From sequence record NC_054918.1: 64,000 nt of DNA; one strand, given 5' to 3'. How positions within the stretch are numbered: position 1 is the first letter of the stretch; each line of letters begins with the position of its first letter. Source of the DNA: Escherichia phage vB_EcoM_G4498. The notes beneath the pieces are model-generated. The model ran no database searches. It was given only the letters and a program-made list of their open reading frames with translations, and had not been told where the DNA came from. A program made the translations under genes and the position numbers. Below, piece after piece: positions 23,064 to 30,218 of this stretch.

Positions 23064-24028
23064 TGTATTCTTTAGAGGAATTTAATAATCAAGCAATAAA
23101 CGCAGATTTCCAACGTAATAATATGTTCAGCTGTGTTTTTGCTACAACTCCATCAACTAAAAGCTCTTCGTTGATAAGTTCAATTAGCAACTTTTCTTAT
23201 AATAACTTGGGCCTAAATTCAGATTGGTTAGGATTAACTCAAGGCGATATTAATCAGGGAATTACTACGCTAATTACAGCTGGCACACAAAAACTGATAA
23301 GAAAATCAGGGGTTAGTAAATATCTTATTGGTGCCATGAGTCAACGTACAGTTCAAAGTTTATTAGGCTCATTTACAGTTGGTACATATTTAATTGACTT
23401 CTTTAACATGGCATATAACTCATCTGGATTGATGATATACTCTGTAAAAATGCCAGAGAATAGATTATCCTATGAAACTGACTGGAACTATAATTCTCCT
23501 AATATTCGTATAACTGGGAGAGAATTAGACCCTTTGGTTATTTCATTCAGAATGGATTCAGAAGCTTGTAACTATCGTGCAATGCAAGACTGGGTTAACG
23601 CTGTTCAAGACCCAGTAACTGGATTGCGTGCTTTGCCGCAAGATGTCGAGGCTGATATTCAGGTTAATCTTCATTCTCGCAATGGATTACCACATACTGC
23701 GGTGATGTTCACTGGATGCATTCCAGTGTCCGTAAGCGCTCCTGAGTTATCATATGATGGAGATAACCAAATAACTACATTTGATGTTACTTTTGCGTAT
23801 AGAGTCATGCAGGCTGGAGCAGTTGATAGACAAGCTGCGCTTGAATGGCTTGAATCTGCTGCTATAAATGGTATTCAAAGCGTTCTCGGAAATAGTGGAG
23901 GTGTCACTGGACTATCTAATTCGCTTTCACGACTTAGTAGATTAGGGGGAACTGCAGGAAGCATTTCAAATATTAACACTATGACAGGAATTGTCAATTC
24001 GCAAAGTAAAATATTAGGAGCAATATAA
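23063..24028 (+). CDS. 54: baseplate tail tube initiator
   Basis: 321 aa, tube-protein-like, position after 48. Confidence 0.9.
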   Translation: MYSLEEFNNQAINADFQRNNMFSCVFATTPSTKSSSLISSISNFSYNNLGLNSDWLGLTQGDINQGITTLITAGTQKLIRKSGVSKYLIGAMSQRTVQSLLGSFTVGTYLIDFFNMAYNSSGLMIYSVKMPENRLSYETDWNYNSPNIRITGRELDPLVISFRMDSEACNYRAMQDWVNAVQDPVTGLRALPQDVEADIQVNLHSRNGLPHTAVMFTGCIPVSVSAPELSYDGDNQITTFDVTFAYRVMQAGAVDRQAALEWLESAAINGIQSVLGNSGGVTGLSNSLSRLSRLGGTAGSISNINTMTGIVNSQSKILGAI

Positions 24029-24032
24029 CAAT

Positions 24033-24050
24033 GGGGACCTTTCGGTCCCC
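24033..24050. terminator. hairpin between convergent gene 54 and the 96-aa ORF
   Basis: GGGGACCTTTCGGTCCCC perfect stem. Confidence 0.5.
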
Positions 24051-24056
24051 ATATTT

Positions 24057-24347
24057 TTATTTACGGAATGAAATGAAAGCAGCAACTGAAGCAACTAAAC
24101 TGTCTTCAATATAAACTTCAATTTTTACCGGAGCTTCTGACTCAAATTTACCTGTTACTACACCCTGAAAAATACTTTCAGTCTGTTCTGGCTTTGAAAA
24201 ATTTTCAGAAGGAAAAATTCCGAACTTTTTATCTGTTCCAAAAATTTTGATAAATTCATCGTAAACTGCTTCATTAAAAGCATTATCAGCAGGAATAACG
24301 CCTTCAACTACAAGTTCTTGACCTAAAAAGCGCAAAGAAGATTTCAT
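24057..24347 (-). CDS. hypothetical early protein
   Basis: 96 aa, ATG with GAGGAA 8 nt upstream; directly downstream of a strong early-type promoter. Confidence 0.65.
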   Translation of the reverse strand: MKSSLRFLGQELVVEGVIPADNAFNEAVYDEFIKIFGTDKKFGIFPSENFSKPEQTESIFQGVVTGKFESEAPVKIEVYIEDSLVASVAAFISFRK

Positions 24348-24355
24348 TTTGTGTT

Positions 24356-24408
24356 CCTCATGTTATGTCAGTAAGACTACTATAACACAACACGAGGGAC
24401 TTGTAAAC
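24356..24408 (-). promoter_or_regulatory. early promoter plus 5' leader cassette (GTTTAC -35, TATAGT -10, GAGGA SD), copy A
   Basis: Minus strand GTTTACAAGTCCCTCGTGTTGTGTTATAGTAGTCTTACTGACATAACATGAGG just upstream of the 96-aa ORF. Confidence 0.6.
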
Positions 24409-26465
24409 TACATCTTGAACTTTTTAGACATTCCGTTGATGTTAACCAAAGAAGCTAAGATTTGAGAAACTTCGTTTTCCTCTTCTTTTGATTCTTCTAC
24501 AAGGAATTGATTAAATCCAGCCATTGGACGAACTTCACCAGTTTCCATTAGATGGTCGCCATCATATACTGATTCTTCTAATTGTTCAGAAGGAGGAACG
24601 ATTGTACCTTCGATTAGATACTTGTTATAAGCAGTTTCTTTCATAAAGTAAGTACTTACTTTATTAATCTTCAGTAAAATTCCACGTGGTAGAATAACTT
24701 CAGCTTCTGACGGAAATCCTGATAAATGACCCGGAACGATAACTTTGATTCGCTCAGCTCCTTTAATTACCATACCCACGCTAGTTTCAGCATCTTCATT
24801 AGCATATGTAGAATGACTACCCATATGCATCAAATCTTCTGCATCAACGGAACCTTCTCCTTCACCAGAAAATACTGCGCCGGAATCATCTAGAGCCATA
24901 TAGTTTTTACCATGCTCACCGAAGATATTTGGTTTAAGCGATGTGGATACGAAGTTCTTGAAATAGAACATTTTATTTTCAATGTTATGACGCAAAGTTT
25001 TAAAGGTAACTTCTTGTCCACGGTAAAGTGTAGTTCCTGGAGGAAGAACTGAACCTTTAGCGAATGCAGAATCAAGCGTCTCAATATGTTTAATAGCTCG
25101 TTCCATATATTCTTCACGGGTAGAATCTGGTTTACCCAAAAGGAACGAGTTCATTTCAACATATGAATCTGCACAATAATCTTCAATTACATCAGATTCA
25201 GCTTGAGTTAATCCTTTTGGAGTTACTTCAGTGCTTGCGTATTCATATGCCTGAGCAGCAGATTCATTAATCAATTTATAAATGCCATTCATGACAAATT
25301 GAATAATAGCTGTCTTTTCATCTGGCGTAGCTTTAGAACCTTTAACCAAATCATTGATAATTTTCTTAATAACATCAAAGCTATTAGAAATATTAATATC
25401 AGCAAGATCGCTTAAAATTTTATCAGTCTTATAATCAAAGAATTCTTTATTCTTTAAATATTCTTGAGAACCTTGATATGTTATATCGCTCTGTAACTTG
25501 ATAGATGGATCACGTAAACGTGCATGGGCTAATGCAATATGATTTCGGAAGCTTTCGAGTTCATAATCACTAGATTTAAAACGAGAAGCGCTTCTCATAC
25601 CGCCTATAGCTCCTTTGCTGAAGTTTGAACCAATTTGAATAACGCCAGAGTTCATTGGTCCTTCTGCTTTATACACCGGAACTTTAGATTCAAACTCTTG
25701 ATATTTCTTAGCAGCGAAGCTATCACCCTGAAGTGAAGCATCAACAGTAGAATATTGAGCTTGTGCTGCTAATCGACGACTAATTTTAGTTTTCTGAATA
25801 ACAGCTTGGTCCGTGCGCTTATCATTTTCTAAAGCAATAGAAGCAGCAACAGCAACAGCTTTAGGAACAGCATTACCTGTTTTAACATCTACATAAACAT
25901 CACCAACCTTTGATTCAACTTTTGTGAATAACTCAGTTGAAATAGGAGGTACACCTGGAATGTCTTCTAAATTGGCATTTTTACGATAAACCATAATATA
26001 TGCGTACTTTTTATCATAATCCCAGATTTCCTTTAAAAGAACATATCGACCTGCTCCTTTAGTACGTACTAAACGGTCAGCAATAACTTGCATTTGACGA
26101 GCAGCGCCATTTGTTTTACTCTTTAGTACGCGGAATAAGCATGCATCAATTTTATACTGTTTCATTGTTTGAAGAGCAGTATCAAAAACAGCGTTAATGA
26201 CGCCAATTGGATTTCCACCCAAGTTTCTAAGTTTAACCAGTGATAATTTCTCGTTGACACCTATCATTACGATATGCATCATTTTATCGCCCGGCTTAAC
26301 GTTTTTATTTGTATCACCTCCAGAGGTGTATGTACAAAATCTAAATCCAGGAAGCACGCTTTCTTCGCCGGCTTGAATAGCAAAAATTTGAGGTATTTTA
26401 TGCTTAGGATTTAAGTTAACAACCGGCGCCGAAGCGCCGTCAAATAATTCTGTAATAAGTTCCAT
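24408..26465 (-). CDS. Alt-like ADP-ribosyltransferase paralogue (predicted capsid-packaged)
   Basis: 685 aa; N-terminus MELITELFDGAS; R-S-E ART signature (LYRGQ, YFKNFVSTSL, EVILPRG); ~75% identical to neighbouring Alt over first ~235 aa. Confidence 0.8.
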   Translation of the reverse strand: MELITELFDGASAPVVNLNPKHKIPQIFAIQAGEESVLPGFRFCTYTSGGDTNKNVKPGDKMMHIVMIGVNEKLSLVKLRNLGGNPIGVINAVFDTALQTMKQYKIDACLFRVLKSKTNGAARQMQVIADRLVRTKGAGRYVLLKEIWDYDKKYAYIMVYRKNANLEDIPGVPPISTELFTKVESKVGDVYVDVKTGNAVPKAVAVAASIALENDKRTDQAVIQKTKISRRLAAQAQYSTVDASLQGDSFAAKKYQEFESKVPVYKAEGPMNSGVIQIGSNFSKGAIGGMRSASRFKSSDYELESFRNHIALAHARLRDPSIKLQSDITYQGSQEYLKNKEFFDYKTDKILSDLADINISNSFDVIKKIINDLVKGSKATPDEKTAIIQFVMNGIYKLINESAAQAYEYASTEVTPKGLTQAESDVIEDYCADSYVEMNSFLLGKPDSTREEYMERAIKHIETLDSAFAKGSVLPPGTTLYRGQEVTFKTLRHNIENKMFYFKNFVSTSLKPNIFGEHGKNYMALDDSGAVFSGEGEGSVDAEDLMHMGSHSTYANEDAETSVGMVIKGAERIKVIVPGHLSGFPSEAEVILPRGILLKINKVSTYFMKETAYNKYLIEGTIVPPSEQLEESVYDGDHLMETGEVRPMAGFNQFLVEESKEEENEVSQILASLVNINGMSKKFKM

Positions 26466-26468
26466 GAT

Positions 26469-28517
26469 TTATCCTTGAACGAACTTGTAAGGCATGTTTG
26501 TAATATCTATGCAAGACGCAATAATTCCAAGAGATGATTCTACTTTCTGTTTAACATTTGATGAAACAAATGATGCAAAGTCAACTCTATCTTCTATATC
26601 ACCTGTCATTGTAACTACTTCGCCGGTTTCCATTAAACGGTCACCGTCATAAATTACTGATTCGGTGAGTTCTTCGGTGGTCATAACTTCAGCTTGAATA
26701 AGCTTGTTGTTAGTTTTGACTGTTCCATCATTGTAAGATGCATCAGTTATTTTATTAACTTTGACCATTAATCCACGTGGCAAAATGACTTCCATTTCAT
26801 TTGAAGGCGCTAAACTTCCACCGGGTAAAACAACATTGACTTTATCAGCCCCAGTAATAACCCATCCAATTCCGACTAAATTATCGCTAGAATTAACAAG
26901 CCCTTCATCATTTTTATCGATAGAAATGTTTAGACGCTTTTCATCTGGTAAAACACCAACAGCTGAATCAGTCATCCAAGTACCAAAAATGTTTGGATAT
27001 AATGATGTTGATACAAAATTTCTAAAATAAAAAACTCGATTTTTTACCATTGCTTCGTATATTGAAGGTAACATTCGTTGTGAACGATACAAAGTAATAC
27101 CTTTTGGTAATCGTTCACCATTTTTAAAGGCTGAATCTAAATTATCAATAGCTTTTTCTATGTCAGATGCTGTCAAAATACTTGTACGCTCATCTGGATT
27201 ATATAATCCCAAAAGAGCATTATTTATGTCTACATATCCTGAACCTACGTATTCACGAATTCCGCGTTTTTGTGCTGGTGTGTATTTAGATGAATCTTTA
27301 TTTTCGACTATAGGATGTAATGACCATCCAGCTGTAAGAGCATATCCACGTAATTCTCTTCGAATAATCTTTGTTTTTATTGCATTCCAAGAATTTTGTA
27401 CTAACTCATTTGCAGCATCTTGGTTTAAATGCGAATGTTTGTTAATATTTCTTTCAAACCAAGCACCTTTATATTTTTCTAAAGTATCATCGACGATAGA
27501 AGCAATAGTTTCTAAAGTTTTTATTGAAGTAATAGATTCTTTTCGTAATTTTTCTAAAGCTTTATTTTTTATTTCTGCATTAATAATGGATTCTTTATCT
27601 TCAGGAATTATAGAAGCTTCTCTGAATGCCATCCCAGCTGTAACACTGCTAAGAGCATTCTCTAGTGCAAATCCTGAAGTAGAAATTACCGTTAATTCAT
27701 TAGAATCAGAAATTAAAGGCGCATCAGCGGGTTTATTTAATTCTGCTGCTGAAGCCTCAAATTTTTGAAACATCGGTGTTTCAAATCTAGAAGATTCCAA
27801 TGACTGACTTTGTGCAATTGCTCTACGGGAAATTTTAACTTTAACGATTACAGCTTGGTCAGAACGTTTATCATTTTCTTGTGCAATAGATGCTGCAATT
27901 GCCTCATTTTTGGTTACTTGAGCTCCGGTATCTTTATTGATATAAACATCACCGACCTTCGATTCAACTTTAGTAAAGAGCTCGGTACTAATTTCCGGAA
28001 CTCCTGGAATGTCTTCTAGTGATACATTTTTGCGATGTATAAGAATATATGCATACTTTTTATCATAATCCCAGAGTTCCTTAAGAAGGACGTATCTGCC
28101 ACCTGAACGACTACGGATAAGTCTATCAGCAATAACTTGAATTTGTCGAGCTTGACCAGCGGTTTTAGACTTAAGAATACGAAGCATACAAGCATCAATT
28201 TTATACTGACGCATTGTTTGCATTGCAACAGTAAAAACTGAATTGATATAATTAATTGGGCTTGGACCAAGACCTTTTAATTTAGCAATTGAACCTTTAG
28301 CGGTTAATGTAAAAGGAACAATATGCATCATTTTATCGCCCATTTTTAAATCGCGATTAGTATCACCTCCAGATGTATAGGTACATAAACGAAAGCCTGG
28401 TTGTTCAATTGCATCATCAACATGAACTGAAAAAATTTGCGGTATTTTCTTCTTTGGATTTAAGTTTGTAATCGGAAGAGTAGTATCTTCGTCAAATAAT
28501 TCTGTAATAAGTTCCAT
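26469..28517 (-). CDS. alt: Alt ADP-ribosyltransferase (injected internal head protein)
   Basis: 682 aa from second ATG; MELITELFDEDTTLPITN...; ART motifs LYRSQ, YFRNFVSTSL, EVILPRG; next to ligase as in T4. Confidence 0.88.
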   Translation of the reverse strand: MELITELFDEDTTLPITNLNPKKKIPQIFSVHVDDAIEQPGFRLCTYTSGGDTNRDLKMGDKMMHIVPFTLTAKGSIAKLKGLGPSPINYINSVFTVAMQTMRQYKIDACMLRILKSKTAGQARQIQVIADRLIRSRSGGRYVLLKELWDYDKKYAYILIHRKNVSLEDIPGVPEISTELFTKVESKVGDVYINKDTGAQVTKNEAIAASIAQENDKRSDQAVIVKVKISRRAIAQSQSLESSRFETPMFQKFEASAAELNKPADAPLISDSNELTVISTSGFALENALSSVTAGMAFREASIIPEDKESIINAEIKNKALEKLRKESITSIKTLETIASIVDDTLEKYKGAWFERNINKHSHLNQDAANELVQNSWNAIKTKIIRRELRGYALTAGWSLHPIVENKDSSKYTPAQKRGIREYVGSGYVDINNALLGLYNPDERTSILTASDIEKAIDNLDSAFKNGERLPKGITLYRSQRMLPSIYEAMVKNRVFYFRNFVSTSLYPNIFGTWMTDSAVGVLPDEKRLNISIDKNDEGLVNSSDNLVGIGWVITGADKVNVVLPGGSLAPSNEMEVILPRGLMVKVNKITDASYNDGTVKTNNKLIQAEVMTTEELTESVIYDGDRLMETGEVVTMTGDIEDRVDFASFVSSNVKQKVESSLGIIASCIDITNMPYKFVQG

Positions 28518-28540
28518 CATAGCCTCTCTAGTGTTTATTC

Positions 28541-28548
28541 TATTTATA
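28541..28548 (-). promoter_or_regulatory. late promoter TATAAATA (minus strand) upstream of alt
   Basis: Plus strand tatttata = minus TATAAATA ~25 nt upstream of alt ATG; fits late synthesis of a packaged protein. Confidence 0.5.
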
Positions 28549-28569
28549 AAATTAAAGGCCCGAAGGCCT

Positions 28570-28758
28570 TTAGTAATCTAGTGGTAAGAGAGTACGATAT
28601 ATTTCAAACTTTGGTCCTTTTTCATAGGCATCAAATGTTTCTGTAAATTTATTATAAGCGTATGCATCTACAAATTCGAGAATGACTTGTGATACAGAAG
28701 TAGAAACATCTCCACCTTCTTTTTGAGCAATGACAATTGTTTCTAAGTAAGCTTTCAT
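28570..28758 (-). CDS. hypothetical small protein, translationally coupled to DNA ligase
   Basis: 62 aa; its ATG overlaps the ligase stop (ATGA). Confidence 0.55.
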   Translation of the reverse strand: MKAYLETIVIAQKEGGDVSTSVSQVILEFVDAYAYNKFTETFDAYEKGPKFEIYRTLLPLDY

Positions 28759-30218
28759 AAACCAGTTACCTCATGAAAATCACCAAATACATCCTCGAAT
28801 GTATTAGCTTTAGTTTTATCTTCACGTAAACGAATCGCAATCGGAAGAAATAATTTAACGTAATCAGTGCGGCCATCAGATTTTAACCAACCGTTGCATT
28901 CGCACTCTAGAATTTTTCCAATATAATAATTTTGGTTTTCCATAATGCGAGTACGGTCAAGTTCATGCGATTTTACACCGGCTTTATCTTTTAAGCCTGA
29001 ACCAGCATTTACCTTAATTTTTCCACACTCTGATTCAAGAATAAATCCACCCGCTTTAGTAGGGTCTTTACGGTGAGGATAAATTCCTACAATTTTTAAA
29101 TCAACATCAATTACTTCTTTAAATTTATAGAGATTTTTTGAACGAGCATTTTCCCACAATCCATCGGTATTTTTGAGAATAATACCTTCAAGACCTTGGT
29201 CAATATACTTTTTATAAATTACCTTAGCTTCATCTAGGTTATTTACTACCTGGTTTTCAATTAAAATTACTTTATCATAACCTGATGTCATTTGTTCTAG
29301 TTTAGAAAAACGTACATCATATTTCAAACGAAATGCAGGAAGACCGTATATTTCTACCAACGGGACATAATCCCAGACCTGAAACTTCATGCATTGAGCT
29401 TCTTTTTCAGAAATGGTTCCCTTTAAAGATTTATTGGCGATGCCATTAGATGCAGTACGTGATTCAGCTACTTCGGCGAATTCTTTAGCTTTACTAATTT
29501 CAGGATAAGCATCAAAAAGAAAATCTAGGCCTTCTGGCTCCTTTTCAACTTGCTCATGGTATACCAATTCGCCATCAATTAACACACCTTCTGGATGAAT
29601 CTGGCGAGCTTCTGCAGTCATTTTGATTAACTCTTCCTTAAGAAGATCTAATCCTAGATATTCATTACCAGCTCGTGATAAAAGACGAACATCATCTAAT
29701 TCATCACCTCTGACTTCAGCAAAACACCGAGCTCCATCAGCTTTTAACTGGGCAAAGGCTGGAAATTTGATATTCTTATTAATGCCTTTTTCATCATAAG
29801 AACTTGCAAGCATTTGAGGTTGTTCAGGAATTAAACCTGGCCAAACTTTGTTTGCAATAGATACTGAAGCACCGCATTCAAGGTCTCGCATCATCACCCG
29901 ACGCAAAACTTCAACATCATCTTTTTTACCGTCAGTAATATATCCAGTTAATTCCTCAATTGCCGCATTTCCAGTCAATTTCCGAGTAGCTAACGTGAAT
30001 TCAATGAAGTCAAGCATATCGGTAAGAGTCAACATTCCAAAACTCTGGGTAGCAATACCTGGTTTAGGCCATTTCTTGATATAATACTGTAACCCACGAG
30101 AATAAGTCAGACGATATACTCGTTTAAGCAATTCATTATCTTTATTCTTTTCAAGAATTGCTTGCTTCTGCTTAGTTGAACCAATAGATGCTATTTCGTT
30201 CAGAATTTTAAGAATCAT
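28755..30218 (-). CDS. 30: ATP-dependent DNA ligase
   Basis: 487 aa, same length as T4 ligase; adenylation lysine context (KADGARC). Confidence 0.95.
   Translation of the reverse strand: MILKILNEIASIGSTKQKQAILEKNKDNELLKRVYRLTYSRGLQYYIKKWPKPGIATQSFGMLTLTDMLDFIEFTLATRKLTGNAAIEELTGYITDGKKDDVEVLRRVMMRDLECGASVSIANKVWPGLIPEQPQMLASSYDEKGINKNIKFPAFAQLKADGARCFAEVRGDELDDVRLLSRAGNEYLGLDLLKEELIKMTAEARQIHPEGVLIDGELVYHEQVEKEPEGLDFLFDAYPEISKAKEFAEVAESRTASNGIANKSLKGTISEKEAQCMKFQVWDYVPLVEIYGLPAFRLKYDVRFSKLEQMTSGYDKVILIENQVVNNLDEAKVIYKKYIDQGLEGIILKNTDGLWENARSKNLYKFKEVIDVDLKIVGIYPHRKDPTKAGGFILESECGKIKVNAGSGLKDKAGVKSHELDRTRIMENQNYYIGKILECECNGWLKSDGRTDYVKLFLPIAIRLREDKTKANTFEDVFGDFHEVTGL

Follow-up and report, generated by a model that had tools for sequence, protein, structure and literature searches.

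Tandem alt genes in a T4-like Escherichia phage encode Alt and an intact, diverged paralogue, Alt2, predicted to be a second injected ADP-ribosyltransferase

The Alt protein of phage T4 is a capsid-packaged NAD:arginine ADP-ribosyltransferase (ART), present at about 40 copies per head, that is injected and modifies the alpha subunit of RNA polymerase (at Arg265) as well as other host proteins. Phage ARTs have been tied to anti-defence, through the action of Alt against MazF and Mokosh type I and through the RNAylation carried out by ModB, and hosts have ART-based defences of their own, such as CmdTAC and DarTG. Here we describe the alt locus of Escherichia phage vB_EcoM_G4498 (NC_054918.1), using a stretch of 64,000 nucleotides (nt) of Tequatrovirus (T4-like phage) DNA that is called the window below. 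This locus contains tandem paralogous genes for arginine-type mono-ADP-ribosyltransferases: alt, and a gene that is annotated elsewhere as alt2 or altb and whose product we call Alt2. The best explanation for the second gene, and one that we hold to be probable, is that Alt2 is a second late-made, gp21-processed and injected arginine ADP-ribosyltransferase, with substrates unlike those of Alt.

Several described systems resemble this pair. Three bp beyond alt, T4 has alt.-1 (61 amino acids (aa), NP_049810) and alt.-2 (67 aa, NP_049809), both explained in the T4 annotation by an ancient duplication of the beginning of alt. Nolan et al. (2006, PMC1524935) listed duplications of alt in T4-like phages, one of them full-length in 44RR. 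The BASEL records name the two proteins 'ADP-ribosyltransferase Alt' and 'ADP-ribosyltransferase Alt2', the record of Dhakavirus IME08 has tandem 'alta' and 'altb', and RefSeq names both copies 'Alt-like RNA polymerase ADP-ribosyltransferase'. The pair is already known at the annotation level, in hundreds of public genomes, and is not a new kind of system; the T4 remnant, too, was recognised by the T4 annotators. The R-S-E clade of ARTs includes toxins (Vis, iota/CPILE-a, C2-I, VIP2, C3, SpvB, ExoS, HopU1 and Certhrax) that are delivered as binary toxins or by secretion systems, whereas the route of Alt, and the one predicted for Alt2, is the phage head and DNA injection, and the N-terminal 415 residues are unrelated to the adaptor domains of the toxins. 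IPI, IPII and IPIII of T4 resemble Alt, and Alt2 as predicted here, in several ways: they are non-essential proteins of the head that are injected, gp21 removes their N-terminal propeptide at (L/I)-x-E, and they have variable effector bodies and loci that are polymorphic between T-even phages. The IPs are small proteins with a targeting peptide of about 10 residues, whereas Alt and Alt2 have a 6-residue propeptide, a large conserved N-terminal domain and a C-terminal propeptide as well, that of Alt2 being predicted from its sequence.

The genes of the locus follow one another on the minus strand in the order DNA ligase (gene 30), alt.1, a 682-aa gene, a 685-aa gene and alt.-3. Over positions 24000-28800 the window matches Escherichia phages FL08, G4500 and G29 exactly (100% identity), and its identity to scores of further T4-like phages exceeds 97%. 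The initial annotation of the window had described two tandem minus-strand genes of 685 and 682 aa lying 3 bp apart, and the list of open reading frames (ORFs) agrees, with frames at 24408..26465(-) and 26469..28520(-); the TAA stop codon of alt (26471-26469) and the ATG of Alt2 (26465-26463) are separated by the 3-bp gap ATC. The alt ORF opens with ATGATG, giving 683 aa (MMELITE...) from the ATG at 28520 and 682 aa from the second ATG at 28517, the latter being the start used by the T4 annotation and by the published ITE-6 cleavage numbering. The two genes, and the parts into which Alt2 can be divided, are as follows.

26469..28517, minus strand: alt, 682 aa, canonical Alt
24408..26465, minus strand: Alt2, 685 aa, intact Alt paralogue
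25755..26465, minus strand: Alt2 N-terminal module, aa 1-237, consisting of the MELITE propeptide with ITE-6 and then the alpha/beta domain PF26846 (Tevenvirinae_ADPRT)
25221..25754, minus strand: Alt2 helical central region, aa 238-415, about 17% identical to that of Alt
24573..25220, minus strand: Alt2 ART catalytic domain, aa 416-631, with R482, S507-T-S509 and E587-A-E589, ending at the predicted gp21 site LEE-631
24408..24572, minus strand: Alt2 acidic C-terminal segment, aa 632-685, isoelectric point (pI) 4.6, plus the stop codon; counterpart of the C-terminal propeptide of T4 Alt

As first proposed, the ligase-proximal copy is canonical Alt: it is identical to T4 Alt (NP_049811) at 672 of 682 residues (98.5%) over the whole length, including the central region, and its catalytic residues are R478, S503-T-S505 and E574-M-E576. 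The second gene, at 41% overall identity and about 17% in the centre, is not an orthologue of T4 Alt proper; its matches to PF03496 and phrog_802 uphold the earlier view that it encodes a diverged paralogue of Alt. PF03496 is matched by both Alt and Alt2 (3.1e-36 and 5.8e-20, respectively; Pfam), so that the resemblance is not due to chance, and phrog_802, 'Alt-like RNA polymerase ADP-ribosyltransferase', is matched over the full length by Alt2 (2e-256) and by the other copy (4.6e-262). The two proteins have a common architecture, in which a helical middle joins an N-terminal domain of about 235 aa to an R-S-ExE ART domain and the C-terminal tail is acidic, and both begin with MELITELFD, as had been read from the translations. 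Their identity is unevenly distributed. Over residues 1-235 it is 159/235 (67.7%), lower than the roughly 75% initially estimated; across aa 238-415 it falls to about 17%, in line with the strong central divergence that had been reported, and in the ART and C-terminal part it is about 37%. Alt2 is like T4 Alt in its length, N-terminus, N-terminal domain (68%), R-S-ExE residues, both gp21-site positions, acidic tail and, probably, late promoter, and unlike it in overall and central identity and in having a different, acidic insert after the STS motif.

The ART motifs listed in the initial annotation are all present in the two proteins (TLYRSQ/TLYRGQ, YFRNFVSTSL/YFKNFVSTSL and EMEVILPRG/EAEVILPRG), and Alt2 combines an ART fold with the Arg, the Ser-Thr-Ser and the ARTT-loop Glu-x-Glu by which the R-S-E clade is recognised. 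The paralogue has retained its catalytic Arg and Glu residues: R482, E587 and E589, together with S507 and S509, do not vary among 13 aligned sequences, and their conservation in a set of 56 diverse representatives (50% clustering) is 90% or more. The PF26846 and PF03496 assignments were precomputed on the 99%-identical cluster representative of Alt2 (P0001), and PF26846 is found on related loci also. Neither the N-terminal alpha/beta domain nor the helical middle gave an informative structural or profile match, and the central region of Alt2 has no match in Pfam or the PDB; in the PDB sequence search Alt2 had no match and Alt only a weak one to CdtA (E 0.008). We infer that the N-terminal module of Alt2 is a prohead-core targeting module and that its central region serves in substrate recognition.

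Alt2 is under strong purifying selection. In comparison with the T2 orthologue, synonymous divergence (dS) is 0.152 and nonsynonymous divergence (dN) is 0.003, giving a dN/dS of 0.02, and in comparison with a 74%-identical orthologue on metagenome contig L007, which likewise carries a tandem pair, dN/dS is 0.13. Constraint is strongest on the N-terminal domain, with a dN/dS for this module of 0.03 among Alt2 orthologues and 0.23 between the Alt and Alt2 paralogues.

Orthologues of Alt2 occur in T2 (EcT2_00208, a 685-aa second gene next to an alt of 697 aa), in BASEL phages ('Alt2': bas35_0031, bas36_0031 and bas42_0031) and in Dhakavirus IME08 and JS10 ('altb'). The Tequatrovirus copies (BASEL, T2) are 97-100% identical to the window Alt2 at the DNA or protein level, and no differences in character were seen. 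The altb gene has the same tandem position and 45-59% identity to Alt2 in the centre and ART region, but its acidic insert is longer and its N-module is nearer to the alta of its own genome than to Alt2. Identities in the centre and the ART region are 45% and 59% between Alt2 and altb of IME08, and 33% and 62% between Alt and alta; since Alt2 groups with altb and Alt with alta, the duplication predates the split between Tequatrovirus and Dhakavirus. The N-terminal 237 residues reverse this pattern, with 66-68% identity between copies within a genome and 42-46% between cross-genus orthologues (IME08 = L005), which suggests that the N-modules of the tandem copies were homogenised within the genome in the past, in a form of concerted evolution. 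Such homogenisation was not recent, because the dS of the N-module between Alt and Alt2 is 1.25; recent gene conversion as the source of the N-terminal similarity was ruled out by this value (aa 1-237), which is close to that for the rest of the gene. The genes for Alt (28491-28517(-)) and Alt2 (26439-26465(-)) share their initial 27-28 nt exactly (ATGGAACTTATTACAGAATTATTTGAC), whereas the background nucleotide identity is 68% and synonymous divergence is close to saturation. This identity could reflect selection at the nucleotide level, on the translation start or the propeptide, or micro-conversion.

These comparisons bear on whether Alt2 could be a redundant second dose of Alt, packaged and acting on the same substrates (Arg265 of RNA polymerase alpha and the other Alt targets). 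Its architecture, catalytic residues and N-terminal module are the same, and T4 has lost Alt2 without an obvious laboratory phenotype, both of which speak for a second dose. We nevertheless regard this explanation as unlikely, given a centre and an ART region that are only about 17% and 37% identical at saturated dS, and Alt2/altb and Alt/alta lineages that have been separate since before the two genera split. That these lineages have been kept apart, each under purifying selection, argues for separate functions rather than dosage. Even variants of Alt itself are not interchangeable against Mokosh: T4 Alt rescues infection against Mokosh type I and Bas37 Alt does not (bioRxiv 10.1101/2025.11.20.689424), so that variation in Alt has functional consequences. 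A target for Alt2 other than that of Alt is plausible from the low central identity and the age of the divergence.

The initial annotation had taken the ITE of the common N-terminus for a site of the type cut by the gp21 prohead protease, and cleavage of T4 Alt by gp21 at ITE-6 is known from experiment. In T4 heads, mass spectrometry showed that Alt is cleaved after ITE-6 and LTE-619, the LTE-619 cut removing 63 C-terminal residues and leaving a 68.2-kDa protein (Ali et al. 2017, PMC5694885). When these two cuts are applied to the window Alt, a product of 613 aa and 68.2 kDa is obtained, reproducing the published mass. Alt2 has ITE-6 as well, and LEE-631 stands in the column aligned with LTE-619 of Alt; its predicted mature form has 625 aa and a mass of 69.1 kDa, and the acidic C-terminal peptide predicted to be released has 54 residues. 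Across 56 diverse members of the family, conservation of the P1 glutamates E6 and E631 is 90% or higher. Other genera keep (L/I/M)-x-E at the N-terminal site (MENLNE, MNLLNE, MEILNE) and have LNE, LSE, IDE, LDE, IQE or MDE at the C-terminal one.

The signals for transcription and translation, and the neighbouring genes between which they lie, are as follows.

28570..28758, minus strand: alt.1, 62 aa, PF24647 Phage_blade, between the ligase gene and alt
28553..28572, minus strand: terminator-like hairpin TAAAGGCCTTCGGGCCTTTA plus T-run, after alt.1; phage G4507 has an annotated terminator at this place as well
28541..28548, minus strand: T4 late-promoter box TATAAATA, 23 nt upstream of the alt ATG
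26472..26476, minus strand: Shine-Dalgarno-like AAGGA for Alt2, in the last alt codons, 6 nt before the Alt2 ATG
24379..24407, minus strand: sigma-70/T4-early-type promoter, TTTACA-17 nt-TATAGT with extended TG, directly after the Alt2 stop
24057..24347, minus strand: alt.-3, 96 aa, DUF5498, sequence identical to T4 Alt.-3
24031..24052, both strands scored: terminator-like hairpin between the convergent genes 54 and alt.-3

The TATAAATA box upstream of alt is the only minus-strand copy of this promoter motif between 17767 and 34337, and none precedes Alt2; with this single box, alt and Alt2 are probably carried on one late transcript. The hairpin after alt.1 would insulate alt from upstream early transcription. 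As an early-type promoter, which would drive alt.-3 on its own, stands right after the Alt2 stop, alt.-3 is probably outside the late alt/Alt2 message. Genes 54 and 48, on the plus strand, converge on the minus-strand alt cluster, and the hairpin at 24031..24052, the T-rich tail of which is clear on the plus strand only (ATTTTTATTT; the minus-strand tail is TGTTATATTG), likely marks the end of the alt-Alt2-alt.-3 transcripts. In T4, mutations that extend the C-terminus of Alt.-3 allow escape from the CmdTAC ADP-ribosyltransferase defence (PMC11618068).

From its sequence we infer, as the initial annotation did, that Alt2 is packaged into the head and injected; indirect support comes from the Alt N-domain, both aligned gp21 sites and the one late promoter. 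Alternatively, Alt2 might be made late and remain unpackaged, acting in the producing cell on host or phage proteins or serving as an assembly factor; the cleavage motifs are short and common, and no virion proteomics covering Alt2 was found in the literature searched. We consider this quite unlikely. Alt2 keeps the whole N-terminal domain under the strongest constraint in the protein (dN/dS 0.03), both aligned gp21 sites with P1 glutamates that are conserved family-wide, and the acidic C-terminal tail, which Alt loses within the head. Natural fusions, described below, place the Alt N-module on an Alt2 body, and the N-domain is joined to an ART in 54 of 56 representatives.

An E-x-E motif is usual in protein ARTs that are specific for arginine, and the folds closest to the ART domain of Alt2 are those of Vis, iota-like toxins, C2/VIP2 and SpvB. 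In the AlphaFold2 (AF2) model of Alt2, residues 1-11, 517-554, 607-612 and 630-663 are of low confidence. The second of these segments (24804-24917(-)) is an acidic insert that follows the STS motif, precedes the next core strand and is of highly variable length among orthologues; the version in altb of JS10 and IME08 is much longer and rich in Asp and Glu. From the model, it is a possible specificity or regulatory loop. ModB of T4 also transfers NAD-capped RNA (RNAylation), and Alt2 might do likewise or act on a non-protein acceptor such as RNA, DNA or a small molecule, as ARTs of the R-S-E clade have repeatedly switched acceptor type, Alt2 has divergent specificity loops that are unmodelled, and its sequence does not fix the acceptor. 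Against this, the E-x-E and the closest folds are, from what is known of the family, typical of arginine-specific ARTs, and we judge a non-protein acceptor or RNA transfer to be very unlikely.

T4 itself has no intact paralogue, which answers a question that the initial annotation had left open; only the remnant alt.-1 and alt.-2 is there. These two correspond almost residue for residue to Alt2 residues 1-54 and 62-117 and have the same position 3 bp after alt, and the profiles phrog_23015 (2.1e-40 on Alt2 aa 1-56) and phrog_15247 (1.1e-37 on aa 62-117) are both far weaker on Alt. In DNA alignment, T4 keeps window positions 26600-26118 and 24427-24012, and the approximately 1.69 kb between them (~24428-26117) is gone. 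The junction of the T4 deletion (L001:5085-5135) is a short imperfect repeat, CTAAA[A/G]AGT, found in the window at ~26118 and ~24427, which is consistent with a microhomology-mediated deletion. In T4, alt.-1 and alt.-2 are what remains of Alt2 after a frameshift and the deletion of about 1.7 kb between short repeats, whereas the gene in the window is whole.

Of 496 related phage records, 91 (~18%) have a deletion junction of the T4 type, and intact Alt2 is the common state, in about four fifths of sequenced relatives. A total of 400 phage records, among them T2, RB27, RB68 and the Yersinia phages PST and phiD1, contain the Alt2-specific central 236 aa at an identity of at least 95%; in Dhakavirus altb the identity is about 49%. 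T6 matches the T4-type junction only as a split hit (55% coverage), the pattern expected of an intact gene, and apparently carries intact Alt2. That Alt2 is a decaying or catalytically dead duplicate en route to the state of T4, which with the 91 records holds only a remnant, is extremely improbable and effectively refuted by the intact 685-codon frame in about 400 records, the conservation of all catalytic residues, the dN/dS of 0.02 against T2 and the orthologues in another genus.

If Alt2 is, as we propose, a second injected arginine ADP-ribosyltransferase, the single TATAAATA promoter would give one late message for alt and Alt2, and Alt2 would be translated from its own AAGGA ribosome-binding site. 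The common N-terminal module would carry both proteins into the prohead scaffolding core, where gp21 would trim Alt2 after ITE-6 and LEE-631 to a mature protein of about 69 kDa. Mature Alt2 would then be injected with the DNA and would ADP-ribosylate arginines of host proteins in the first moments of infection. Its substrate set most likely differs from that of Alt, because its central region and active-site loops are unrelated to those of Alt, and, by analogy with the action of Alt against MazF and Mokosh, its targets could include a host defence or stress component. Alt2 would be dispensable in laboratory hosts, because T4 has lost it.

Several points weigh against this explanation. The motif [LI]-x-E occurs 7-8 times per protein, which by a rough estimate from composition is about the chance level; counting of the motif was accordingly rejected as evidence for cleavage, and the prediction of cleavage draws on position and conservation. 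Co-transcription of alt and Alt2 is read from the absence of a second TATAAATA box. The confidence of the AF2 model of Alt2 is moderate, and aa 517-554, the loops likeliest to set specificity, are unmodelled; the acceptor could be other than protein arginine. T4 and about 18% of its relatives manage without Alt2, so that any function of Alt2 would be conditional. Finally, a search of the literature for Alt2, altB or the paralogue found no virion proteomics, enzymology, knockout, substrate or function study.

Variation at the locus is not confined to Alt2. The part of alt that differs most from T2 is the following.

26701..27789, minus strand: alt central part, codons ~243-605 (helical middle and ART core), delimited by DNA comparison with T2

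This segment of about 1.1 kb has just 41-82% DNA identity to T2, whereas the remainder of the 4.8-kb locus is mostly 93-100% identical, the lowest 60-nt bin, at 87%, being within alt.1. In the centre and ART region, the T2 version of alt has more in common with Dhakavirus alta (64% and 86% identity) than with T4 Alt. T4-type and T2-type phages have different versions of this central part of alt, and from the DNA comparison the segment looks like a cassette exchange within alt itself. A 202-aa antisense ORF lies inside alt at 27160-27768(+); it is unsupported and is most likely a by-product of opposite-strand composition.

In two metagenomic loci, L003:5001-7055 (SRR24155011, 65 kb) and L004:5001-7061 (SRR19633722), a single gene lies between alt.1 and alt.-3, in which the Alt N-module is fused to the centre and ART body of Alt2. 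The crossovers differ between the two (at about nt 546-558 and 657-669), and these two independent natural fusions make the N-modules appear interchangeable. Assembly artefacts were judged unlikely, as the crossovers lie in runs of identity shorter than the longest shared run of 27 nt. The single-gene arrangement is in none of the 15 best-matching isolate genomes listed, the fusions being seen in metagenomes only. Phages with such a fusion would be without the catalytic part of Alt itself. A full HMMER scan of 1.84 billion representatives with the N-domain found only 69 clusters, 56 of which were then scanned for Pfam domains; 54 of the 56 carry PF03496 and no other Pfam domain, and the idea of the N-domain as a general delivery module for other types of effector is unsupported by this result.

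A broader view, which we put forward tentatively and to which we give somewhat less than an even chance, is that the alt locus of T-even phages is a modular injected-effector locus, with a delivery frame, swappable cassettes, and an Alt2 that is aimed at a host target or defence system other than that of Alt. The delivery frame may consist of the N-terminal domain of about 240 aa and the C-terminal tail, carrying middle-plus-ART cassettes of which there may be at least three types, T4-Alt, T2-Alt/alta and Alt2/altb. Swapping of cassettes between phages is proposed because the segment 27789-26701 differs from T2 between flanks that are mostly 93-100% identical. Unequal recombination may yield the Alt::Alt2 fusions or delete one copy, as in T4.

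Alt is a textbook example of a phage enzyme that is injected with the DNA, and nearly all of the work on it has been done in T4, a minority phage that lacks the sister gene. Alt2, being intact and strongly conserved, would be an inexpensive and clearly defined subject for experiments. Most natural T-even phages, T2 and apparently T6 among them, probably inject two different ADP-ribosyltransferases. T4 is atypical at the alt locus and, if the view of this locus as modular is true, would under-represent the natural arsenal of injected ADP-ribosyltransferases.

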